Of a stretch of DNA of 64,000 bases, positions 2,359-11,846 are shown in pieces. The first letter of the stretch is position 1. The number at the start of each line of letters is the position of its first letter. Both the position numbers and the translations under genes were made by a program. The stretch covers positions 32,001 to 96,000 of the forward strand of contig CAVWBU010000041.1 of NCBI GenBank assembly GCA_963753345.1, written 5' to 3'. Source of the stretch: an uncultured Fibrobacterota bacterium (GTDB taxonomy: Bacteria; Fibrobacterota; Chitinivibrionia; Chitinivibrionales; FEN-1185). The notes under the pieces were generated by a model. That model had not been told where the DNA came from. It searched no databases and saw only the letters and a program-made list of their open reading frames with translations.

Positions 2359-4029
2359 TTATTCCTTTTTCCTCTTCAGCAATTCCTCCGCATGCTTCCT
2401 CGCTATCGCAGAATCTCCCCCAAGCATGCGTGCAATCTCTAACATCCGTTCCTCTTTGCCAAGCAGCTTCACCATGGTGACGGTGCGGCCGGCCTGCGCC
2501 TCCTTGTACACGTGGTACTGGCGGTCGGCCAGGGAGGCGATCTGGTGCAGGTGGGAAATGCAAAGCACCTGATGTGAGGCGCTGAGCGACGCGAGCGATT
2601 TCGCCACTTCGCCCGCGAGCACGCCGCCGATGCCGGAATCGATCTCGTCGAACACCAGGATGGGGACGTTGTCGTGCGTAGCGAGCACGGTCTTTATGGC
2701 GAGCATGAGGCGGGAGATCTCGCCGCCCGAGGCGATCTTGACAAGCGGCAGCAGCGCCTCGCCGGGATTGGTGCGCACGAGGAACTGCGCGTCCTCCATG
2801 CCCGCGGGCTGCGGCGCGTCAAAGGATGTGAAACACGTTTCCCATTGCCCGCCGGTAAAGCCAAGCGTCGCCATTTCCGCGGTGATGGCGCGGTCGAACA
2901 CCGCCGCGTGCTTTCTGCGGCCAGTCGAGAGCGCCCTGCCGGCCTTTACGCAGGCGTCAAGCGCGGCCTTTTCTGCCTTGGCAAGCTCCTCCCGGTCGGC
3001 GCCGGCGGCCGCAAGCGCGCTAAGGTCGGACGCCAATTGCTTTTCTTTCGCAATGAGGCCGTCGAAGTCGACACCGTATTTCTTCTTGAGCCGCTGGATT
3101 TTGGCGAGACGCGCATTGATGGCGTCAAGCTGCGCCGGGTCCATGGCGGCGCCGGCCTTTTCGAGGTAGGCCCCGCAATACGACTCAAGCGCCGAGAAAA
3201 CCGAGGCAGGCGCCGCCAGGTCGGCAAGCCAGGGCAAGGCGGTCGAATCGTACCGTACAAGAGTTTCCAGGCTTTTCCGGATAACGCCGATCTGCCGGCC
3301 GATACCGGTTTCGTCGGCGGCAAGAATGTCGTTGATCTTCGAGACACATTCCAGCCGCTGCGCCGACGAGGACAGGAGCGTGAGCTCCTGTTCGAGCCTG
3401 GCCTCCTCGCCCGGAGCAAGGTTCAGGCCCTTGAGTTCGTTGTGGGCAAATTCAATAACGTCTCTGCGGGCAGCAAGGTCTGCGGCCAGTCTGTCGTGCG
3501 CAGCAAGGTTCTCACGTGCCGCCACGTACGCGCCGTACCGACCGGCATAGTCGGCGGCCGGACCCGCAACGCCCGGAAGCTCGTCGATGGTGCGCCGCGC
3601 GGTTTCCGGATCGAGCAACGACTGGTGCTCGTGCTGGCCGTGAAAATCGACCAGCAGGTCGCCCACGCTCTTGAGCACCGACAGCGGCAGCGGCACCTGA
3701 TTGACATACACGCGGTTCTTGCCGCTGCGCGAAATCACGCGCCGCACGATGCACTCCCCTCCCTCGCGGGGAATACCGTTTGCGTCGAGCAGGCTGCCGA
3801 GCGGCTTTCGCATTTCGTTAAGTTCAAACACGCCGCTCACTTCTGCCTCGTCGAACCCGCCGCGCACCTGTTCGCTCGATGCGCGCTCGCCCAGGAGGAG
3901 CCCTATGGCGCCCACGAGTATCGACTTGCCGGCACCGGTCTCGCCTGTAAAGACGGAAAGCCCCTTGGAGAACTCAACGTGGACGTCCTCGATGAGGGCA
4001 AGGTTCCTGATGCGCAGTTCCCGGATCAT
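2359..4029 (-). CDS. recN: DNA repair protein RecN
   Basis: Walker A TGETGAGKS, HGQHEHQ, ASGGEISR, FDEIDSG, EIARMLGG; follows NAD kinase, a conserved gene order. Confidence 0.97.
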   Translation of the reverse strand: MIRELRIRNLALIEDVHVEFSKGLSVFTGETGAGKSILVGAIGLLLGERASSEQVRGGFDEAEVSGVFELNEMRKPLGSLLDANGIPREGGECIVRRVISRSGKNRVYVNQVPLPLSVLKSVGDLLVDFHGQHEHQSLLDPETARRTIDELPGVAGPAADYAGRYGAYVAARENLAAHDRLAADLAARRDVIEFAHNELKGLNLAPGEEARLEQELTLLSSSAQRLECVSKINDILAADETGIGRQIGVIRKSLETLVRYDSTALPWLADLAAPASVFSALESYCGAYLEKAGAAMDPAQLDAINARLAKIQRLKKKYGVDFDGLIAKEKQLASDLSALAAAGADREELAKAEKAALDACVKAGRALSTGRRKHAAVFDRAITAEMATLGFTGGQWETCFTSFDAPQPAGMEDAQFLVRTNPGEALLPLVKIASGGEISRLMLAIKTVLATHDNVPILVFDEIDSGIGGVLAGEVAKSLASLSASHQVLCISHLHQIASLADRQYHVYKEAQAGRTVTMVKLLGKEERMLEIARMLGGDSAIARKHAEELLKRKKE

Positions 4030-5420: not shown

Positions 5421-6766
5421 TAATCCCTAAATTCACAAATCGACTCAAGCATCTCCCTGAATCTCGGCCACCGCCTCACAATCGCCTCGTCATTGATTTT
5501 TGTTTTTCCCATGCAGCGCAGCCCGGCCGCGGCAAAGCTCGCCGCGATGTGCGCGGGCAGGTGCTCCGACATATCGAAGCCGTCGAACTGGCGTCCTCCG
5601 TCGACAACGAGGCCGTCGGGCATCTCGCCGTGACGCGCACCCAGAAGGTTTACACATGAGAGTATCTGGGCGATGCCGTCCGGCTCGTCGCTGCGCAGGT
5701 CGGCAAGTCCGCGGAACACCGTCTGGCCGTCGCCGTAGGCCGCGAGCACCACCATGGCCGGCAGCTGGGGCACATACTGGAACAGCGGCTCGCAGTCCAC
5801 TTTCCTGCCGCTGTGGCCGCTCTTGACAATCGAGACGGTTCCGCACGATCCGAAAGAAGTCGCGCCCGTTTCCTGCGTGGCGATTGCGCCGCCCATCTTT
5901 TTGAACAGCGACAGCGTTGCCGTGTTCCACGATTCGAGCCCGGCATTTTCAATGATCAGGCTTCCCCTGGGGACAATGCATTTCGCAACGGCGAATATCG
6001 CGCCGAGCACGTCGTCCCCGGGCACGGTGATCTCGGGCTGCATTTCATCGCGCTTCGAAAAATCGGCCGCAACGGTGAACGTGACCGGCCCCTCGGACTT
6101 CTTGCCGGTCTGCATGAAGCGCATGCGCCGCACGAGCGGGTCCTCGTTTTTGTCGCGCAGGCTGTTGGTTACCGACAGCGTGTAGCCGAACGCGGGCAGC
6201 ACATGCCGCAGCGGACTGGCAAACACCGTGTCGGTGGTAAGCGACACCGCCCGGCCGAGCCCCAGCGCAAGTCCCAGAATCGGGTGCGCCTCGTCGATGT
6301 TTCTCACCGTGTCGCGCACCCGGAAGGCTTCCCCTCCGTCAAGATGCATGGTCGTTTTTCCGTTCGTTGCGGCAATAGCAAGGGTGCAGCCGAGGTCGGC
6401 GGAAAGTTTTGTCCACGCTGCAAGCCTGGCGGGCGGCAGCGGGTCTACGACCATGGTCTTGCCCAGCCCCAGAAGCGCGAACACCGCGAAATCGCGATAG
6501 GGTATTTCGTCGTACGACAGCGTGACCGGCGCGGCATTCGCATCTTCTACGGGCCGCACGACGCAGCTTCCCGCGTCGCAGGCAAAGACGGCGTGGCCGG
6601 CGAGCGCCTTTTCCCACCACGGCACAAGGGGTATGTCGGCAAGCGGCGATATTCTGGCCGCTGTCTTCGCCGCGAGCGCGATGATAATGCTTGTGAAGAA
6701 AAGATCTCCCGACGGCGGAAGCCGCACCGATCCCTTTATCTCCCTTGCGGGCCTGATTTCCAGCAC
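5420..6766 (-). CDS. aroA: EPSP synthase (AroA)-like protein with degenerate catalytic motifs
   Basis: AroA-like N-terminus (IKGSVRLP), VPGD, GQTVFRGLADLR and C-terminal WPRF; directly downstream of tyrA. GTG start at 6766. PGSKS, KETDR and DHR motifs are absent. Confidence 0.75.
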   Translation of the reverse strand: MLEIRPAREIKGSVRLPPSGDLFFTSIIIALAAKTAARISPLADIPLVPWWEKALAGHAVFACDAGSCVVRPVEDANAAPVTLSYDEIPYRDFAVFALLGLGKTMVVDPLPPARLAAWTKLSADLGCTLAIAATNGKTTMHLDGGEAFRVRDTVRNIDEAHPILGLALGLGRAVSLTTDTVFASPLRHVLPAFGYTLSVTNSLRDKNEDPLVRRMRFMQTGKKSEGPVTFTVAADFSKRDEMQPEITVPGDDVLGAIFAVAKCIVPRGSLIIENAGLESWNTATLSLFKKMGGAIATQETGATSFGSCGTVSIVKSGHSGRKVDCEPLFQYVPQLPAMVVLAAYGDGQTVFRGLADLRSDEPDGIAQILSCVNLLGARHGEMPDGLVVDGGRQFDGFDMSEHLPAHIAASFAAAGLRCMGKTKINDEAIVRRWPRFREMLESICEFRD

Positions 6767-6767
6767 G

Positions 6768-7892
6768 CTACTCCCTTTCCCACGTCGTGATGCCGAGGTT
6801 TTTGAAAAGCTCAACCACCCGGCGCGCAGTGTCGCGCGATTCAAACGCCAGCCGGATCGTGCCGGCTTCGTTCTCCCTCACCTTGAGCACCTCGATGTCC
6901 TTGATGTTGATGTTTTCCTTTGCGCAGGCGTTGGCCATGAGCGCGATCATGCCGGGCTGGTCCTTTACAACTACGAACACCTCGGACAGCGCGCCGATGA
7001 AACCCTTGCTCGACCGCGGGATCTTCGCGCGCGTTTCGGCCGCGGCGTTGAACGCCTTGTCGAGACCGTCGCGCAGCAGGAGTTCCTTCATGGCAAGCAG
7101 CGCCGCGGCGAACTCGTCGATGAGCGGCGCGATGCGCTCCTTGTTGGTCGACAGGATGTCGCGCCACAGGGCGTACGGCGACGACGCGATGCGCGTCATG
7201 TCGCGGAAGCCGCCCGCGGCCAGCGCAAGCGTCCCCGGCGACCTGCCGTCCATGGCCGCGGCGGCATTCACCAGCGCGACGGCCAGGATGTGCGGAAGGT
7301 GGCTCACCGCCGCCGCGATGGTGTCGTGCGCTTCGGGCGAGAGCCGCACGTGTTTGCAGCCGAGATTTGCTTCGAGAAAACGCGCAAAGCCGTCCGCAAC
7401 GGGCGCAGGAACGCTGTCCCCGGGCGTCAGAACGTAGATCGCGTCCTGGAAGAGATACGGGTCGGCCGACGACGGGCCGCGCTTTTCCGACCCGGCCATG
7501 GGGTGGCCGCCGACAAAATGCACGCCGGGCGGAAGGAAGCGCCGCGCCGCGGCGACGATTTCACTCTTGGTGCTCCCGACGTCGGTGACGATGCAGCCGG
7601 CGGGAAGCCGAAGCTTCCCCAGCCGTTCGAGCGCCGCAATGATGCCGTGTATGGGCGAGCACAGGAACAGGCAGCCGGTCGATTGTATCACTGTGTCAAG
7701 CGCGTCGTAGCCGTGCCCTTCGTCGATGCAGCCGAGCGACTTCGCGGCGCGAATGGCCTGCTCCGACGAAAGGCCGACAATGCGTCCCTTGTATCCCGAC
7801 GCCTTGAGGGCAAGCCCTATGGAACCGCCGAGAAGCCCGACGCTGTAAATGGTGACGGTCTTCGGCGAGAATGCGTCCTGCCGCCGGTTCAT
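6768..7892 (-). CDS. tyrA: Prephenate dehydrogenase with C-terminal ACT domain
   Basis: GLLGGS, TDVGSTK, GGHPMAGSE, SHLPH, GFRDMTRIA; ACT motif DQPG. Confidence 0.95.
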   Translation of the reverse strand: MNRRQDAFSPKTVTIYSVGLLGGSIGLALKASGYKGRIVGLSSEQAIRAAKSLGCIDEGHGYDALDTVIQSTGCLFLCSPIHGIIAALERLGKLRLPAGCIVTDVGSTKSEIVAAARRFLPPGVHFVGGHPMAGSEKRGPSSADPYLFQDAIYVLTPGDSVPAPVADGFARFLEANLGCKHVRLSPEAHDTIAAAVSHLPHILAVALVNAAAAMDGRSPGTLALAAGGFRDMTRIASSPYALWRDILSTNKERIAPLIDEFAAALLAMKELLLRDGLDKAFNAAAETRAKIPRSSKGFIGALSEVFVVVKDQPGMIALMANACAKENINIKDIEVLKVRENEAGTIRLAFESRDTARRVVELFKNLGITTWERE

Positions 7893-8644
7893 AGCGGGTC
7901 CGGCGTCCTGTTGAGCAGATACTTCACTTCGCCCTCTTTGGTAAGCGGAATAATGCAATCGCGGTAGAACCCGAGCACCGTGTCCGGATCGACCACGTGC
8001 CTGCTCGTGCGATTCACGCGCGCCTGGGCCGAGCAGACCTTTGCACGGATCCGTTCAACGATGCGGTCTTCGATGTCGGGCCGCGTGAGCAGGGCGAGGA
8101 GTCCGCCCGCGTCTTTCGCGCGCATCAGCCTCGTGTACAGCCGTTTGTCGCGCAGAAACTTGCTTTCTGCGACGTACAGTGCGCCGTAGTGGATGCGGCG
8201 CGCAATGGCCTGCAGGGCGTACACGTCGTGCTCCACGCTCGATCCGTAGTTGGCGTCGTCGCCTTTTCTGCATAGCAGCGGCACCAGGCCCAGGTAGGCC
8301 GGCATGATCTTCGCGGAAAGGTTGACCGCATTAATGTCCTCGATGCACAGCCCCGTGGGCGGAAGGTGCACCTTCCGCCTCGGCCTTGGCAGCCGGCTGC
8401 AGAACGGACGCTCCTCGGCGACGCAGAAGCGGCCGAACCGCGCGTCCATTTCCTCCTGAAATCGGACCCTGAGCGAGAACAGGCTTTGCCGGGCTGCGCC
8501 GGTGAATCCGCTCCGGCCCGGCAGGTACACGACCGGATTGTGCCGGAATTGCGCTCTGTCAATGAGCTTGAAGATGATGGTCTCCTCGAGCCCCTCGAGC
8601 AGCGTCGTTATCCTTTCCAGGTCGAAATTGCCGCTTGCGGTCAT
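7889..8644 (-). CDS. Chorismate mutase, eukaryotic (yeast Aro7/plant) type
   Basis: LEETIIFKLIDRAQF, LQAIARRIHYG, VAESKF and IIPLTKEGEVKYLL match the Aro7-type pattern; in an operon with tyrA. Confidence 0.88.
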   Translation of the reverse strand: MTASGNFDLERITTLLEGLEETIIFKLIDRAQFRHNPVVYLPGRSGFTGAARQSLFSLRVRFQEEMDARFGRFCVAEERPFCSRLPRPRRKVHLPPTGLCIEDINAVNLSAKIMPAYLGLVPLLCRKGDDANYGSSVEHDVYALQAIARRIHYGALYVAESKFLRDKRLYTRLMRAKDAGGLLALLTRPDIEDRIVERIRAKVCSAQARVNRTSRHVVDPDTVLGFYRDCIIPLTKEGEVKYLLNRTPDPL

Positions 8645-8826: not shown

Positions 8827-9291
8827 ATGCGTACCGTAATTTACGGAATCTTGTTGTTGTTGCTCATAAGTTTCATTACGGGAAGTGTTCCCAACGAGGA
8901 CCGGTTTGTGATACCTGTGGAGAACGGGACGCCGGTTTTCCTGAATAACCCGAGGGCAACTGATGAGCAACCAGTATTTGCCGTGGGAACTACCGACAGG
9001 CTCATGGTGCTCGAATCCAAGGCAGAGGTTTACAAGGTGAGCGACCTAAAGGGAAATGTCGGATGGGTGGACAAAAGGTCGGTAAGTCCGATTCATCCGA
9101 CGGTGTCGATGGTCTTTGGTGACGCGAGCATCCAGGGATACCTTGATAATCCGGTGCCGGTGTACATTCTGGACGCCAACAATCCTTCAGCGGAGCCTCT
9201 GAAGCTTGAAAGATCGTTCGCGGCAGAATTGAAGGAAAATGTCGACCGCATGACTATCGAGCGGATAGTGGGCGAAGACGTGGCGCAATAG
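8827..9291 (+). CDS. Exported SH3-like domain protein
   Basis: N-terminal signal peptide; YKV...GNVGWV motif typical of bacterial SH3 domains. Confidence 0.6.
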   Translation: MRTVIYGILLLLLISFITGSVPNEDRFVIPVENGTPVFLNNPRATDEQPVFAVGTTDRLMVLESKAEVYKVSDLKGNVGWVDKRSVSPIHPTVSMVFGDASIQGYLDNPVPVYILDANNPSAEPLKLERSFAAELKENVDRMTIERIVGEDVAQ

Positions 9292-9458
9292 AGCGGACCA
9301 CAACCTCGTTGCGGCGGACGTGATCTCATCGGTGCTTGGTAAAAACGGTAGAAAGCCGCACGTACTTCTACTCAGCCGTTGTTCATTTTGGTGAATATAT
9401 TATATTTATTGAGGACAGGATCATCAATCGAACGGCACCAGTGAAGGAGCCACGTGTA

Positions 9459-10220
9459 ATGAAGAAAACGCTCAAAACACTTTTCCTGATGGCCATGCTG
9501 CTCGTTGTTCCGGCCGCCTGCAAGACCGGCCCCCTCATCTCGGTTGATTCAGAAGAAGTCAACCTGGGCACCATCAAACAGGGGACCAAGGCGGCGGCGA
9601 AGTACGTCTTCAAGGTGAAGAACACCGGCGACAGCGTGCTGGTGATCAGAGACGTGAGGCCCGGCTGAGGATGCACCGTGGTGGGTTTCGACACCACCAT
9701 CCTTCCCGGTCGGGAAGGTTCCATAACTCCGGAAGTGAACCTTACGAAGGCGCACGGCGGCACATTCAGCAAATGCGTGACGGTCTCCTCGAACGCGAAG
9801 AACAAGCCCGAGATGCATTTGTGCCTCAAGATGACCCTCAAGGTCCCGCTTGCCGCAATGCCTGATTACATCCAGCTGAGACGCAGTGCAAGCGGAAAGT
9901 TTGAGACCGAGGTGACGCTCTCCACCGACAAACCGGACCTCACGGTGAGGGAGGCTTCGTTCAAATCCACGGCGCAGCCGAACAACCAGAACCAGGCCGC
10001 GTGGATGTCGTCCCTGCCGGACCACCTGGAGTTCACCTTGACAAAACCGGACAAACCGACCGCCGACGGGTCGTGGGACTACAAGCTGAAGCTCTGGGAG
10101 GAACCCATGGAGCTCAAGGAAAACAAGTTCGGCGAGTTTACCATAGCCACCAATCATCCGGACATGCCGGAGCTCAAGGTGAACGGCATCATCGACGCGA
10201 GTCCGGCACCGAAGAAATAG
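9459..10220 (+). CDS. DUF1573-like exported protein, probable selenoprotein (UGA at 9666-9668)
   Basis: RBS AAGGAG and signal peptide; FKVKNTGDSVLVIRDVRPG-TGA-GCT continues in frame into ORF 9678-10220. The DUF1573 CGC motif becomes UGC. Confidence 0.82.
9669..9702 (+). promoter_or_regulatory. Candidate bacterial SECIS hairpin
   Basis: GGATG/CATCC lower stem and GTGGTG/CACCAC upper stem with a G-containing loop, immediately 3' of the UGA. Confidence 0.65.
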
Positions 10221-10248
10221 GGACGTTGCGTCAGTCTGTTTTCTAGGC

Positions 10249-10279
10249 CGGGCCTTGAATTTCAAGGCCCGTTTCTTTT
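10249..10279 (+). terminator. Rho-independent terminator
   Basis: CGGGCCTTGAA-T-TTCAAGGCCCG followed by TTTCTTTT. Confidence 0.7.
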
Positions 10280-10294
10280 GGCAAGGTTCGATCC

Positions 10295-11230
10295 ATGCCT
10301 TATGCATATCTTTTCGGCCCGGTCCCATCCCGGCGGCTCGGCCTCTCCCTCGGCGTGGACATCGTTCCGGCCAAGGTGTGCAACCTCAACTGCGTCTATT
10401 GCGAGTGCGGACAAACAACCAAGCTCACGAATGAGCGCAGGGAATGGGCGCCGCCGCAGGCCGTCATGGATGAACTGTCGGAGTTCCTGGGACGCTCGCC
10501 CGTCCTCGACGTCGTGACGGTAACCGGCTCCGGCGAGCCGACCCTTAACACCGGGCTGCAGGCAATAATATCATTTGTCAAAGAGAAGTTCCCCAACTAC
10601 AAAACGGCGCTTCTCACCAACGGGACCCTCCTGCATCTGGACGACGTGCGGCGCGCGGCGGCGCTGTTCGATTTCGTGCTGCCGTCGCTCGACGCCGTCT
10701 CGGACGCAGTTTTCGCTAAAGTCAACAGGCCGCACCGCGGGCTCGACAATGGCCGGATCGTCGAGGGGATCGCGCAGTTCGCCCGCGAATACAAAGGCAG
10801 GCTGTGGCTGGAGGTGTTCATCGTGCCGGGCGCCAACGATACGCCCGCCGAGTTGTCGCTGCTCAAGGAAGCGGTCCTCGCCATTGCGCCCGGCCGCGTG
10901 CAGCTCAACACGCTCGACCGCCCCGGCGCGAGCGCCTCGGTGCGGCCCGCGACCGGCCGCGAGCTTCTTGACATTGCCGACTTCCTCCGTCCCGCTCCGG
11001 TGGAAATCATCTCGCGGTCATATACTGCAGCCGCGGGCGCCGCAAGCGATGCGGCGTTCGAATCCGTCGTGCTTTCCATGCTCCGGCGCCGGCCCTGCAC
11101 CGTGGAGGACATCGCCGTGGCTTCGGGCCGCGCCATCAATGACATCTCCGGGATTCTGCCGCTCCTCCTTGCCGAAGGAACCGTGTCGACCGAGATAGTC
11201 CTGGGCAGGGTCTTTTACAAAGTGAAGTAA
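10295..11230 (+). CDS. Radical SAM protein (COG0731/TYW1-like)
   Basis: FGPVPSRRLG, CNLNCVYC, GSGEPTL, LLTNGTL. Confidence 0.9.
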   Translation: MPYAYLFGPVPSRRLGLSLGVDIVPAKVCNLNCVYCECGQTTKLTNERREWAPPQAVMDELSEFLGRSPVLDVVTVTGSGEPTLNTGLQAIISFVKEKFPNYKTALLTNGTLLHLDDVRRAAALFDFVLPSLDAVSDAVFAKVNRPHRGLDNGRIVEGIAQFAREYKGRLWLEVFIVPGANDTPAELSLLKEAVLAIAPGRVQLNTLDRPGASASVRPATGRELLDIADFLRPAPVEIISRSYTAAAGAASDAAFESVVLSMLRRRPCTVEDIAVASGRAINDISGILPLLLAEGTVSTEIVLGRVFYKVK

Positions 11231-11453
11231 ACGATGCGCTATCCGCTTTGGTCCGCGTGCGCCAAGGGTTGGCTGCAGCACGGCAGGCAAGCGCGGCCGG
11301 GGAGGTCAACCCTCATAACGAAAACCGTTCGGACGTTTTTTCCTTTGCAGCGAAGTTGACACAATTGTACAATTGCAGTATGTAGTGTGCTGACTTGTTG
11401 CGATTTAGTATTTTTAAAATGTAAAAACAATGTTCATTTCAGGGGGAATACCT

Positions 11454-11846
11454 ATGCGGAAAGTCTTGGTAATGGCAGCGGTCCTCTTTTCCTTAATAGG
11501 CTGCTCCAACAATAACAAGATAACGATCGTCAATGATGCGCAGGCACCAATTTACTTCAATTTCCGCGCCAACGAAACCACCCTGGCAAGCGGCGCGTCA
11601 ACGACAATCAAGAACATTCCAAACGGAACGTATAGTTACAATACAAGTTTTGAACTGCCGGATAAAAATGTGACATCCACCACTATTTCGGGCAATGCCG
11701 GAGCCGGCAGCTTGAGATTCGCCCAGGAAAATACTAATCAGCTTCTTATATTTTCCTCGACGTACTTGAGTGGAGTCTATACCGTCTATCTGAACTTCAC
11801 GTCAACTGACTCCAGCGGTGCGACGTCAATACTGCTCGGGCCTTAG
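11454..11846 (+). CDS. Hypothetical lipoprotein
   Basis: MRKVLVMAAVLFSLIGC lipobox; RBS AGGGGG. Confidence 0.75.
   Translation: MRKVLVMAAVLFSLIGCSNNNKITIVNDAQAPIYFNFRANETTLASGASTTIKNIPNGTYSYNTSFELPDKNVTSTTISGNAGAGSLRFAQENTNQLLIFSSTYLSGVYTVYLNFTSTDSSGATSILLGP

Follow-up and report, generated by a model that had tools for sequence, protein, structure and literature searches.

A predicted selenoprotein gene of the DUF1573-UGC type, with two conserved hairpins 3' of its UGA, in an uncultured Fibrobacterota bacterium

Is the TGA codon that interrupts the reading frame at 9459-10220 a stop, a lesion, or a codon for selenocysteine (Sec, U)? The frame lies in a stretch of 64,000 nucleotides (nt), called the window below, which was taken from contig CAVWBU010000041.1 (positions 32,001 to 96,000) of assembly GCA_963753345.1. 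The assembly represents an uncultured Fibrobacterota bacterium of the order Chitinivibrionales; it is a draft of 55 contigs and is 94% complete. Coordinates are those of the window, plus strand, unless another contig or the minus strand is given. A first-pass annotation of the window had proposed a hidden selenoprotein at this place. On the comparisons of sequence and RNA structure described here, the gene is very probably a genuine selenoprotein gene, in which the UGA at 9666-9668 is predicted to be decoded as Sec. Its product belongs with the DUF1573-UGC (OS_HP2-like) selenoproteins, a known kind, and represents an unannotated clade beyond the curated limits of OS_HP2.

The reading frame and its conservation

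Direct reading of the sequence gives the start codon ATG at 9459, the in-frame TGA at 9666-9668 and the terminal TAG at 10218-10220. When TGA is read as U, a single frame of 253 residues with exactly one internal stop is obtained (...VIRDVRPG-U-GCTVVGFD...). The complete gene (9459..10220, +) thus has 253 codons plus TAG, one of them for Sec; full-length orthologs with one TGA are present in 23 of 41 genomes. The read-through translation around U70 is VIRDVRPG-U-GCTVVGFDTTILPGREG, and the flanks of U70 in the protein read DVRPG-U-GCTVVGFDTTILPGR. Translation table 11 cuts this frame into the open reading frames (ORFs) 9336..9668 and 9678..10220. The first-pass annotation had taken the two ORFs for one frame split by a single TGA, and this was borne out: 9459-10220 (+) is one gene, not two. 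A Shine-Dalgarno-like GAAGGAG, also read directly, is found at 9443..9449, 9 nt 5' of the ATG, and might be the ribosome-binding site.

A search of 5.8 billion proteins gave 176 matches, of which 120 were listed. Among those listed, the TGA column holds Cys in all 79 homologs of at least 225 residues, and a second Cys stands two residues further on, also in 79 of 79. The proposal that homologs should carry Cys or TGA at this column therefore holds. The short matches (less than 225 residues) behave differently. All 41 of those listed start with [M/V]VG[F/Y]D just after the TGA column, and the short database calls begin at a GTG four codons past the TGA; the short matches are therefore truncated gene calls. 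One of the 41 listed clusters bears the NCBI name "hypothetical protein [Chitinivibrionales bacterium]". Public records carry the genes of the Fibrobacterota clade as truncated hypothetical proteins of ~180 residues.

A six-frame search of this genome (G000) and 40 relatives gave a match in 41 of 41, and in 23 of these genomes the best or second-best match contained exactly one TGA. In the first 20 orthologous loci, the motif is PGUGCTVV in 18 (KAGUGCTVV in one) and PGCGCT in two; loci fetched later add 5 TGA forms and 15 Cys forms. In addition, an exact DNA-pattern scan for V-x-P-G-U-G-C-T-V-V, covering one genome per GTDB species, found 22 loci. Sixteen of them are labelled Fibrobacterota, Chitinivibrionales, Chitinispirillaceae or similar, and six belong to Desulfobacterales or Desulfobacteraceae. 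Altogether, 24 distinct Fibrobacterota sequences and 6 Desulfobacterales sequences carry this TGA, with coding sequence kept on both sides. Because the TGA recurs across related genomes, it cannot stem from a sequencing error or from a nonsense mutation private to this genome.

The UGA (9666..9668) is predicted to encode U70 on the strength of the Cys column and of the TGA in 18 of the first 20 orthologous loci and in 5 loci added later. It lies inside a recognizable domain. Pfam DUF1573 (PF07610) matches residues 27-119 (9537..9815) with 70.6 bits (1.2e-19; gathering cut-off 26.1) and runs straight through residue 70, and the HYDIN/VesB-like immunoglobulin (Ig) model PF22544 matches residues 25-124 with 41.4 bits. 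This agrees with the earlier assignment of a DUF1573-like domain whose C-G-C position coincides with the TGA. The AlphaFold2 model, made with an 80-sequence alignment, has a mean predicted local distance difference test (pLDDT) value of 91.7 and a predicted template modelling (pTM) score of 0.79. It consists of two β-sandwich domains, with strands in residues 27-128 and 131-245. The U-G-C motif (U70-G71-C72; 9666..9674) is located in the turn that joins strand 61-68 to strand 73-77. Residues G37, N55, G57, P68, C70, C72, D78, L121, G225, T231, and N232 are invariant in the 80 sequences, and G71, H233, and P234 are conserved at 90% or more.

If the UGA is read as Sec by SelB and tRNA-Sec, the U-G-C motif would occupy the β-turn where homologs carry C-G-C. 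The product would then be one exported protein of 253 residues, composed of a signal peptide, the DUF1573 domain with its PapD/ASH-like Ig fold, and the second β-sandwich domain.

Hairpins directly 3' of the UGA

The 18 TGA forms were aligned over positions -9 to +66 (alignment A1) and analysed with RNAalifold and by counting of pairs. Two abutting hairpins were found. Hairpin 1 (9678..9700) starts 9 nt past the UGA; its stem is formed by 9678-9684 with 9694-9700 (A1 columns 22-28 with 38-44) and its loop by 9685-9693. Hairpin 2 (9701..9718) has a stem of 9701-9707 with 9712-9718 (A1 columns 45-51 with 56-62) and an invariant GGUC loop at 9708-9711. Across the 18 orthologs, the seven pairs of Hairpin 1 are formed in 100% of cells, with two pairs compensatory, and the seven pairs of Hairpin 2 in 94.4%, with three pairs compensatory. 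For the two-hairpin structure as a whole, 97.2% of 252 cells are paired, and changes on both sides are observed in 5 of 14 pairs. None of 500 shuffles matched the pairing or the covariation score of this structure. In controls in which the 3' partner was slid by 1-3 columns, 37-54% of cells were paired.

The Sec and Cys forms were then compared over all distinct 75-nt segments; two loci (L051 and L076) escaped the motif used by the script and were counted separately. In the Fibrobacterota TGA forms (n=24), Hairpin 1 has all seven pairs in 23 and six of seven in one, Hairpin 2 has 4-7 of its seven pairs, and the GGTC loop is present in 24 of 24. In the Fibrobacterota Cys forms (n=17), Hairpin 1 keeps 3-6 of seven pairs, Hairpin 2 keeps 1-4 of seven, and the GGTC loop is found in 0 of 17. 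Since the pairing and the GGTC loop occur in the Sec forms and are missing from the Cys forms, both hairpins go with the TGA and not with the protein sequence.

This arrangement differs from the single hairpin drawn in the first-pass annotation. The letters of that hairpin, GGATG CACC GTGGTG GGTTTCGA CACCAC CATCC, are indeed present at 9669-9702 (+), but its pairing register is not conserved. With GGATG/CATCC as the outer and GTGGTG/CACCAC as the inner helix, 77.3% of cells are paired in the 18 orthologs, a value reached by 401 of 500 shuffles, and the inner helix is paired in 63.9%; this register was rejected. In the conserved register of Hairpin 1, the 3' side is offset by three positions relative to it, and the second hairpin with its invariant GGUC loop had been overlooked. 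A scan of the genome for a TGA followed by a hairpin with a GGUC loop gave 20 matches, among which only this gene looks coding; a second example was not found.

Recoding would thus be directed by structured RNA directly 3' of the UGA, namely by the abutting hairpins at +13..+35 and +36..+53 (U of UGA being +1). The loop of the selenocysteine insertion sequence (SECIS) of Escherichia coli fdhF reads GGUC. As outlined in a 2021 review (PMC8659212), the E. coli SECIS is a 40-nt hairpin, whose 17-nt upper stem-loop (nt 15-31) is separated from the UGA by 11 nt; SelB binds at U17 and G23, and the apical loop holds G23 and U24. The element described here resembles the fdhF type in that a stem-loop within the coding sequence directly follows the UGA and that G and U are present in the apical loop. 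In addition, Hairpin 1 begins 9 nt past the UGA, compared with 11 nt in E. coli according to that review (PMC8659212), and its loop at +20..+28 gives an E. coli-like geometry. The differences are that two abutting hairpins are found instead of one 40-nt hairpin, that the invariant GGUC loop is at +43..+46 instead of approximately +22..+25, and that neither a bulged U is evident nor an Rfam match obtained. A 2022 review (PMC9312934) mentions that some bacterial SECIS elements deviate from the consensus model.

From this comparison, Hairpin 2 is the putative SelB-binding element and Hairpin 1 may serve as a folded spacer or scaffold; the analysis leans only slightly to this assignment over the reverse one. 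In the Desulfobacterales homologs, a hairpin was found over the same P-P-G-G codons in five of six minimum-energy folds, with loops of the GGGCG type. Since these genes place a hairpin over the same codons, the two-part layout seems to belong to the family, including both its Fibrobacterota and its Desulfobacterales members. A more extended proposal would be that the element is a distinct bipartite class of SECIS common to these members, in which SelB reads the GGUC loop of Hairpin 2 about 43 nt from the UGA and the linker-less Hairpin 1 is a spacer that brings the loop to the ribosome entrance, and that the gene encodes the core selenoprotein on account of which Chitinivibrionales keep the Sec machinery, FdhA having gone undetected in most of the selA-positive genomes searched. 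Taken jointly, these suppositions are tentative and rather unlikely to hold in full.

Sec machinery, family membership and alternative readings

The first-pass annotation had implied Sec decoding in this lineage, and selA, selB, selC and selD were all found in this genome, selA being split by a 1-base frameshift. The tRNA-Sec was detected at 68.3 bits (cut-off 47) and was identified by ARAGORN as tRNA-SeC with the anticodon tca; selA scored 476.6 bits, selB 282.8 bits and selD 369.3 bits. The scores of tRNA-Sec, selA and selB are above the curated cut-offs, and so is that of selD. The genes selC, selA and selB follow in a row on contig C14 (5371-8020), and selD is on contig C21. Of the 23 genomes with the TGA form, 22 gave a selA match, versus 3 of the 18 with only the Cys form, in a plain count in which the relatives are not independent. 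The sole TGA-form genome without a selA match, G001, is 73% complete. A profile search for formate dehydrogenase FdhA (TIGR01591) was negative in this genome and in most of the selA-positive genomes searched; FdhA with a TGA was seen at meaningful scores in only four relatives (G008, G006, G016, and G027).

The family to which the protein belongs is already described. OS_HP2 was first reported in 2007 as a new selenoprotein family from the metagenome of a deltaproteobacterial Olavius symbiont, as listed in table 2 of that report (PMC1976440), and an entry in the ocean-sampling paper (PMC2398784) gives OS_HP2 with pfam07610 and UxC. The protein studied here likewise has the DUF1573 domain with Sec at the first Cys of C-G-C, and NF041425, "OS_HP2 family (seleno)protein", is its best-scoring NCBIfam model. 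The earlier designation as a hidden selenoprotein was thus right in that annotation of this clade is missing, and has to be revised in that the family is known as OS_HP2 or DUF1573-UGC. No paper that pairs Chitinivibrion- with selenocysteine was found in the literature search. Of the six Desulfobacterales homologs, four pass the NF041425 cut-off at 110-122 bits, and the other two score 85-86. They share with the Fibrobacterota proteins the motif V-x-P-G-U-G-C-T-V-V, a signal peptide, hairpins over the same codons and a second domain, which in them ends in K-T-N-Y-P. They differ in the Hairpin 2 loop, which is of the GGGCG type instead of GGUC, and in that the radical S-adenosylmethionine (SAM) neighbour described below is seen only in Fibrobacterota.

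A maximum-likelihood tree was built from 45 rows, after 14 duplicates, the short locus L046, and L051 and L076 (which had escaped the script's motif) were dropped. The Desulfobacterales Sec forms make up a separate clade with a support of 99/96. The 40 Fibrobacterota rows comprise 23 Sec and 17 Cys forms, which are intermixed; approximately four switches between Sec and Cys are needed to explain them, and the well-supported branches alone demand at least two. A Cys-only clade of paralogs (9 rows), which holds the paralog of this genome on contig C24, is separate from the Sec clade. Cys-form paralogs and orthologs of the same order share the two-domain architecture and PGCGCTVV with the Sec forms, and differ in having a Cys codon and in being without the conserved hairpins. 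The C24 paralog (89734-90420, minus strand; L061/L088) shows 37% identity and PGCGCTVV, and its Cys-only clade occurs in many relatives. In another genome, G013, a TGA form that runs off the contig end adjoins a Cys form (contig C53, 30-1124; L046/L066).

Several observations weigh against the reading of the UGA as a working Sec codon in an OS_HP2-like gene. The folding of the single sequence is weak: the minimum free energy was -30.2 with a z value of -2.06, and 6 of 200 shuffles were as good; in a second run, z was -1.32 and 15 of 200 shuffles were as good. An Rfam scan of 9400-10300 matched no SECIS family. In E. coli, G23/U24 are about 20 nt closer to the UGA than the GGUC loop is here, and Hairpin 1, which is at an E. 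coli-like distance, has a variable loop. The protein scores 70.3 bits with NF041425, against a cut-off of 100, which is also missed by all six other Fibrobacterota members tested (73-86 bits). Finally, the selA match in G000 falls in two frames (positions 2-364 and 371-453 of the profile hidden Markov model). In translation, the 1-base shift lies inside a GCGCGC run near C14:6607 (C14 ~6607-6624), and contigs of related populations from three runs are one base shorter exactly there (L009, places 2586/2587). These contigs come from relatives diverged by 7-8% and do not show whether the assembly is in error or selA is truly damaged. In the latter case, the organism may no longer make Sec.

The last point leads to the alternative that a gene inherited as a selenoprotein gene has very recently lost its Sec decoding through a real frameshift in selA, and that the UGA now terminates translation or is read poorly or otherwise. 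The splitting of the selA match and the base missing from the related contigs would fit such a loss. However, an extra base in a GCGCGC run, judged against contigs of this divergence, is at least as likely to be an assembly error. Furthermore, no damage is seen in the gene, its TGA or either hairpin, the protein shares 96% identity with the one from G001, and selB, selC and selD look whole. This alternative is regarded as improbable. A pseudogene, in which a Cys codon was turned into TGA by a nonsense mutation or by faulty sequencing, would be compatible with the draft state of the assembly and with at least one likely indel elsewhere, in selA. Against it, the TGA is the same in the 24 Fibrobacterota and 6 Desulfobacterales sequences with conserved coding sequence on both sides, and this explanation can practically be set aside.

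A true stop would give two genes or one short product, in the form of a 69-residue exported peptide and a protein of ~180 residues from the GTG at 9678. Table 11 lists the two ORFs in just this way, and the 41 listed database clusters were called so. However, termination at the TGA would sever the DUF1573 domain in the middle of its β-sandwich, would put a stop in line with an invariant Cys, and would leave the downstream piece without a signal peptide. Moreover, the TGA form tracks selA, and the covarying hairpins specific to the Sec forms directly follow the TGA. A stop is accordingly very improbable, and decoding of the UGA as Sec is the preferred reading, which upholds the substance of the first-pass annotation.

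The U-x-C site and the surroundings of the gene

The N-terminal 22 codons (9459..9524) encode a predicted signal peptide, MKKTLKTLFLMAMLLVVPAAC..., recognized by direct reading and alike in the orthologs; pLDDT is ~58 for residues 1-20 of the model. A lipoprotein signal is doubtful, because the Cys at residue 21 varies in the orthologs. The second β-sandwich domain (residues ~130-246; 9846..10196) carries a T-N-H-P motif at residues 231-234. It is defined by the model strands 131-245 with pLDDT mostly above 90, and no Pfam family matched it. The top structural match of domain 1 is PDB 2qsv_A (Z 13.7, root-mean-square deviation 1.6 Å, 102 residues), followed by HYDIN PapD-like domains and VesB/VesC at Z 10-11 and by Ig domains of the MSP type; Foldseek agrees. 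Sequence searches of the PDB found no related solved chain. Domain 1 thus shares the PapD/ASH/MSP-type Ig fold with 2qsv (a Porphyromonas gingivalis protein of unknown function), HYDIN, VesB/VesC and CEP192. Selenoproteins are not known among these structures, and the shared fold says nothing on the chemistry of U-x-C.

The favoured role for U-x-C is that of a putative selenol/thiol exchange site at the periplasm or the surface, with a selenenylsulfide formed across U-x-C; the preference is tentative and falls a little short of an even chance. It has to be set against the lack of a known redox precedent for the PapD/ASH/MSP-type Ig fold among the structural matches, and the neighbouring genes offer no functional hint. 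The second choice is that the protein is a periplasmic carrier with an Ig-like fold, on which U-x-C would bind a soft metal or metalloid (such as Cu(I), Hg, As or even Se) instead of taking part in redox exchange. This would fit the scaffold, whose Ig fold is of a binding type and not that of an enzyme, and the conservation near the site, where invariance is limited to U/C70 and C72, together with D78. The same published selenoprotein lists, PMC2398784 among them, also hold metal-related MerP, MerT and CopZ-like proteins. However, no metal-handling genes are nearby. A conserved third ligand is also missing, since the Desulfobacterales homologs have Tyr, Ser or Asn in place of H233 of T-N-H-P. 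A metal site is the less probable of the two roles, and some role other than these two is possible as well, with a still smaller likelihood. Thiol exchange remains the favoured assignment.

Downstream of the gene, a terminator-like hairpin with a run of T is located at 10249..10281 (+; 10-pair stem with 7 GC pairs, tail TTTCTTTTGG), between the gene and a radical SAM gene; it was recognized by a consensus scan only. The sole match of the Rfam scan, to suhB/mmgR over this terminator, was at chance level (13.7 bits, E 6.9) and was rejected. The uncharacterised radical SAM gene (10295..11230, +) has a CNLNCVYC cluster and matches PF04055 with 61.8 bits; no NCBIfam model matched it at its cut-off. 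It adjoins the gene in 19 of 20 loci, one Cys-form locus included, and in 15 of the 16 Fibrobacterota loci of the pattern scan, and in 0 of the 6 Desulfobacterales loci. This is conserved gene order within the phylum, not a proven functional link. Small predicted exported proteins flank the locus at 8827-9291 (+) and 11430-11846 (+); they are conserved only within the genus, and no Pfam or NCBIfam family was found for either. Farther upstream, a chorismate mutase gene (7889-8644, minus strand) matches TIGR01802, the plant/yeast-type model, with 173.9 bits against a cut-off of 170.9, which is unusual for a bacterium; it is kept upstream in several relatives. In two of the six Desulfobacterales loci (L071 and L076), the OS_HP2 gene adjoins genes for a membrane-anchored rhodanese-like protein and a response regulator/GGDEF protein. 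This neighbourhood could hint at trafficking of sulfur or selenium.

Other selenoprotein genes of this genome were sought by codon-usage and dicodon scans, which discriminated poorly; the gene described here ranked 68th in the dicodon scan. Scans filtered for shadow frames left two convincing candidates, this gene and one on contig C40, by a heuristic that cannot show the selenoproteome to be so small. The second candidate (C40:3036-4475, minus strand; TGA at 3357-3359; L087) matches the AhpC/TSA-redoxin family PF00578 with 73.9 bits, has U at the first Cys of U-P-E-C and a hairpin at +18..+34, and its frame continues from a truncated FAD_binding_2 domain. Since no ortholog was found in the 40 relatives, it may have come from foreign DNA or from a chimeric assembly. 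Among the selenoproteins of the order, the one encoded at 9459-10220 may be the most widely conserved.

Nothing in these results alters what is known in kind, as the family was already described. What they disclose is an annotation gap: a Fibrobacterota clade of selenoproteins is filed as hypothetical proteins of ~180 residues (at least 41 clusters), and the cut-off of NF041425 misses it. A lower cut-off, or an added model for the clade, would close this gap. Because the TGA form tracks selA across the order, it is a handy marker of selenium use in Chitinivibrionales. The covarying two-hairpin element offers a natural test case for the permissible distance of a SelB-binding loop from the UGA. 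For the organisms themselves, the gene is a candidate reason for the persistence of the Sec machinery where formate dehydrogenase was not found.

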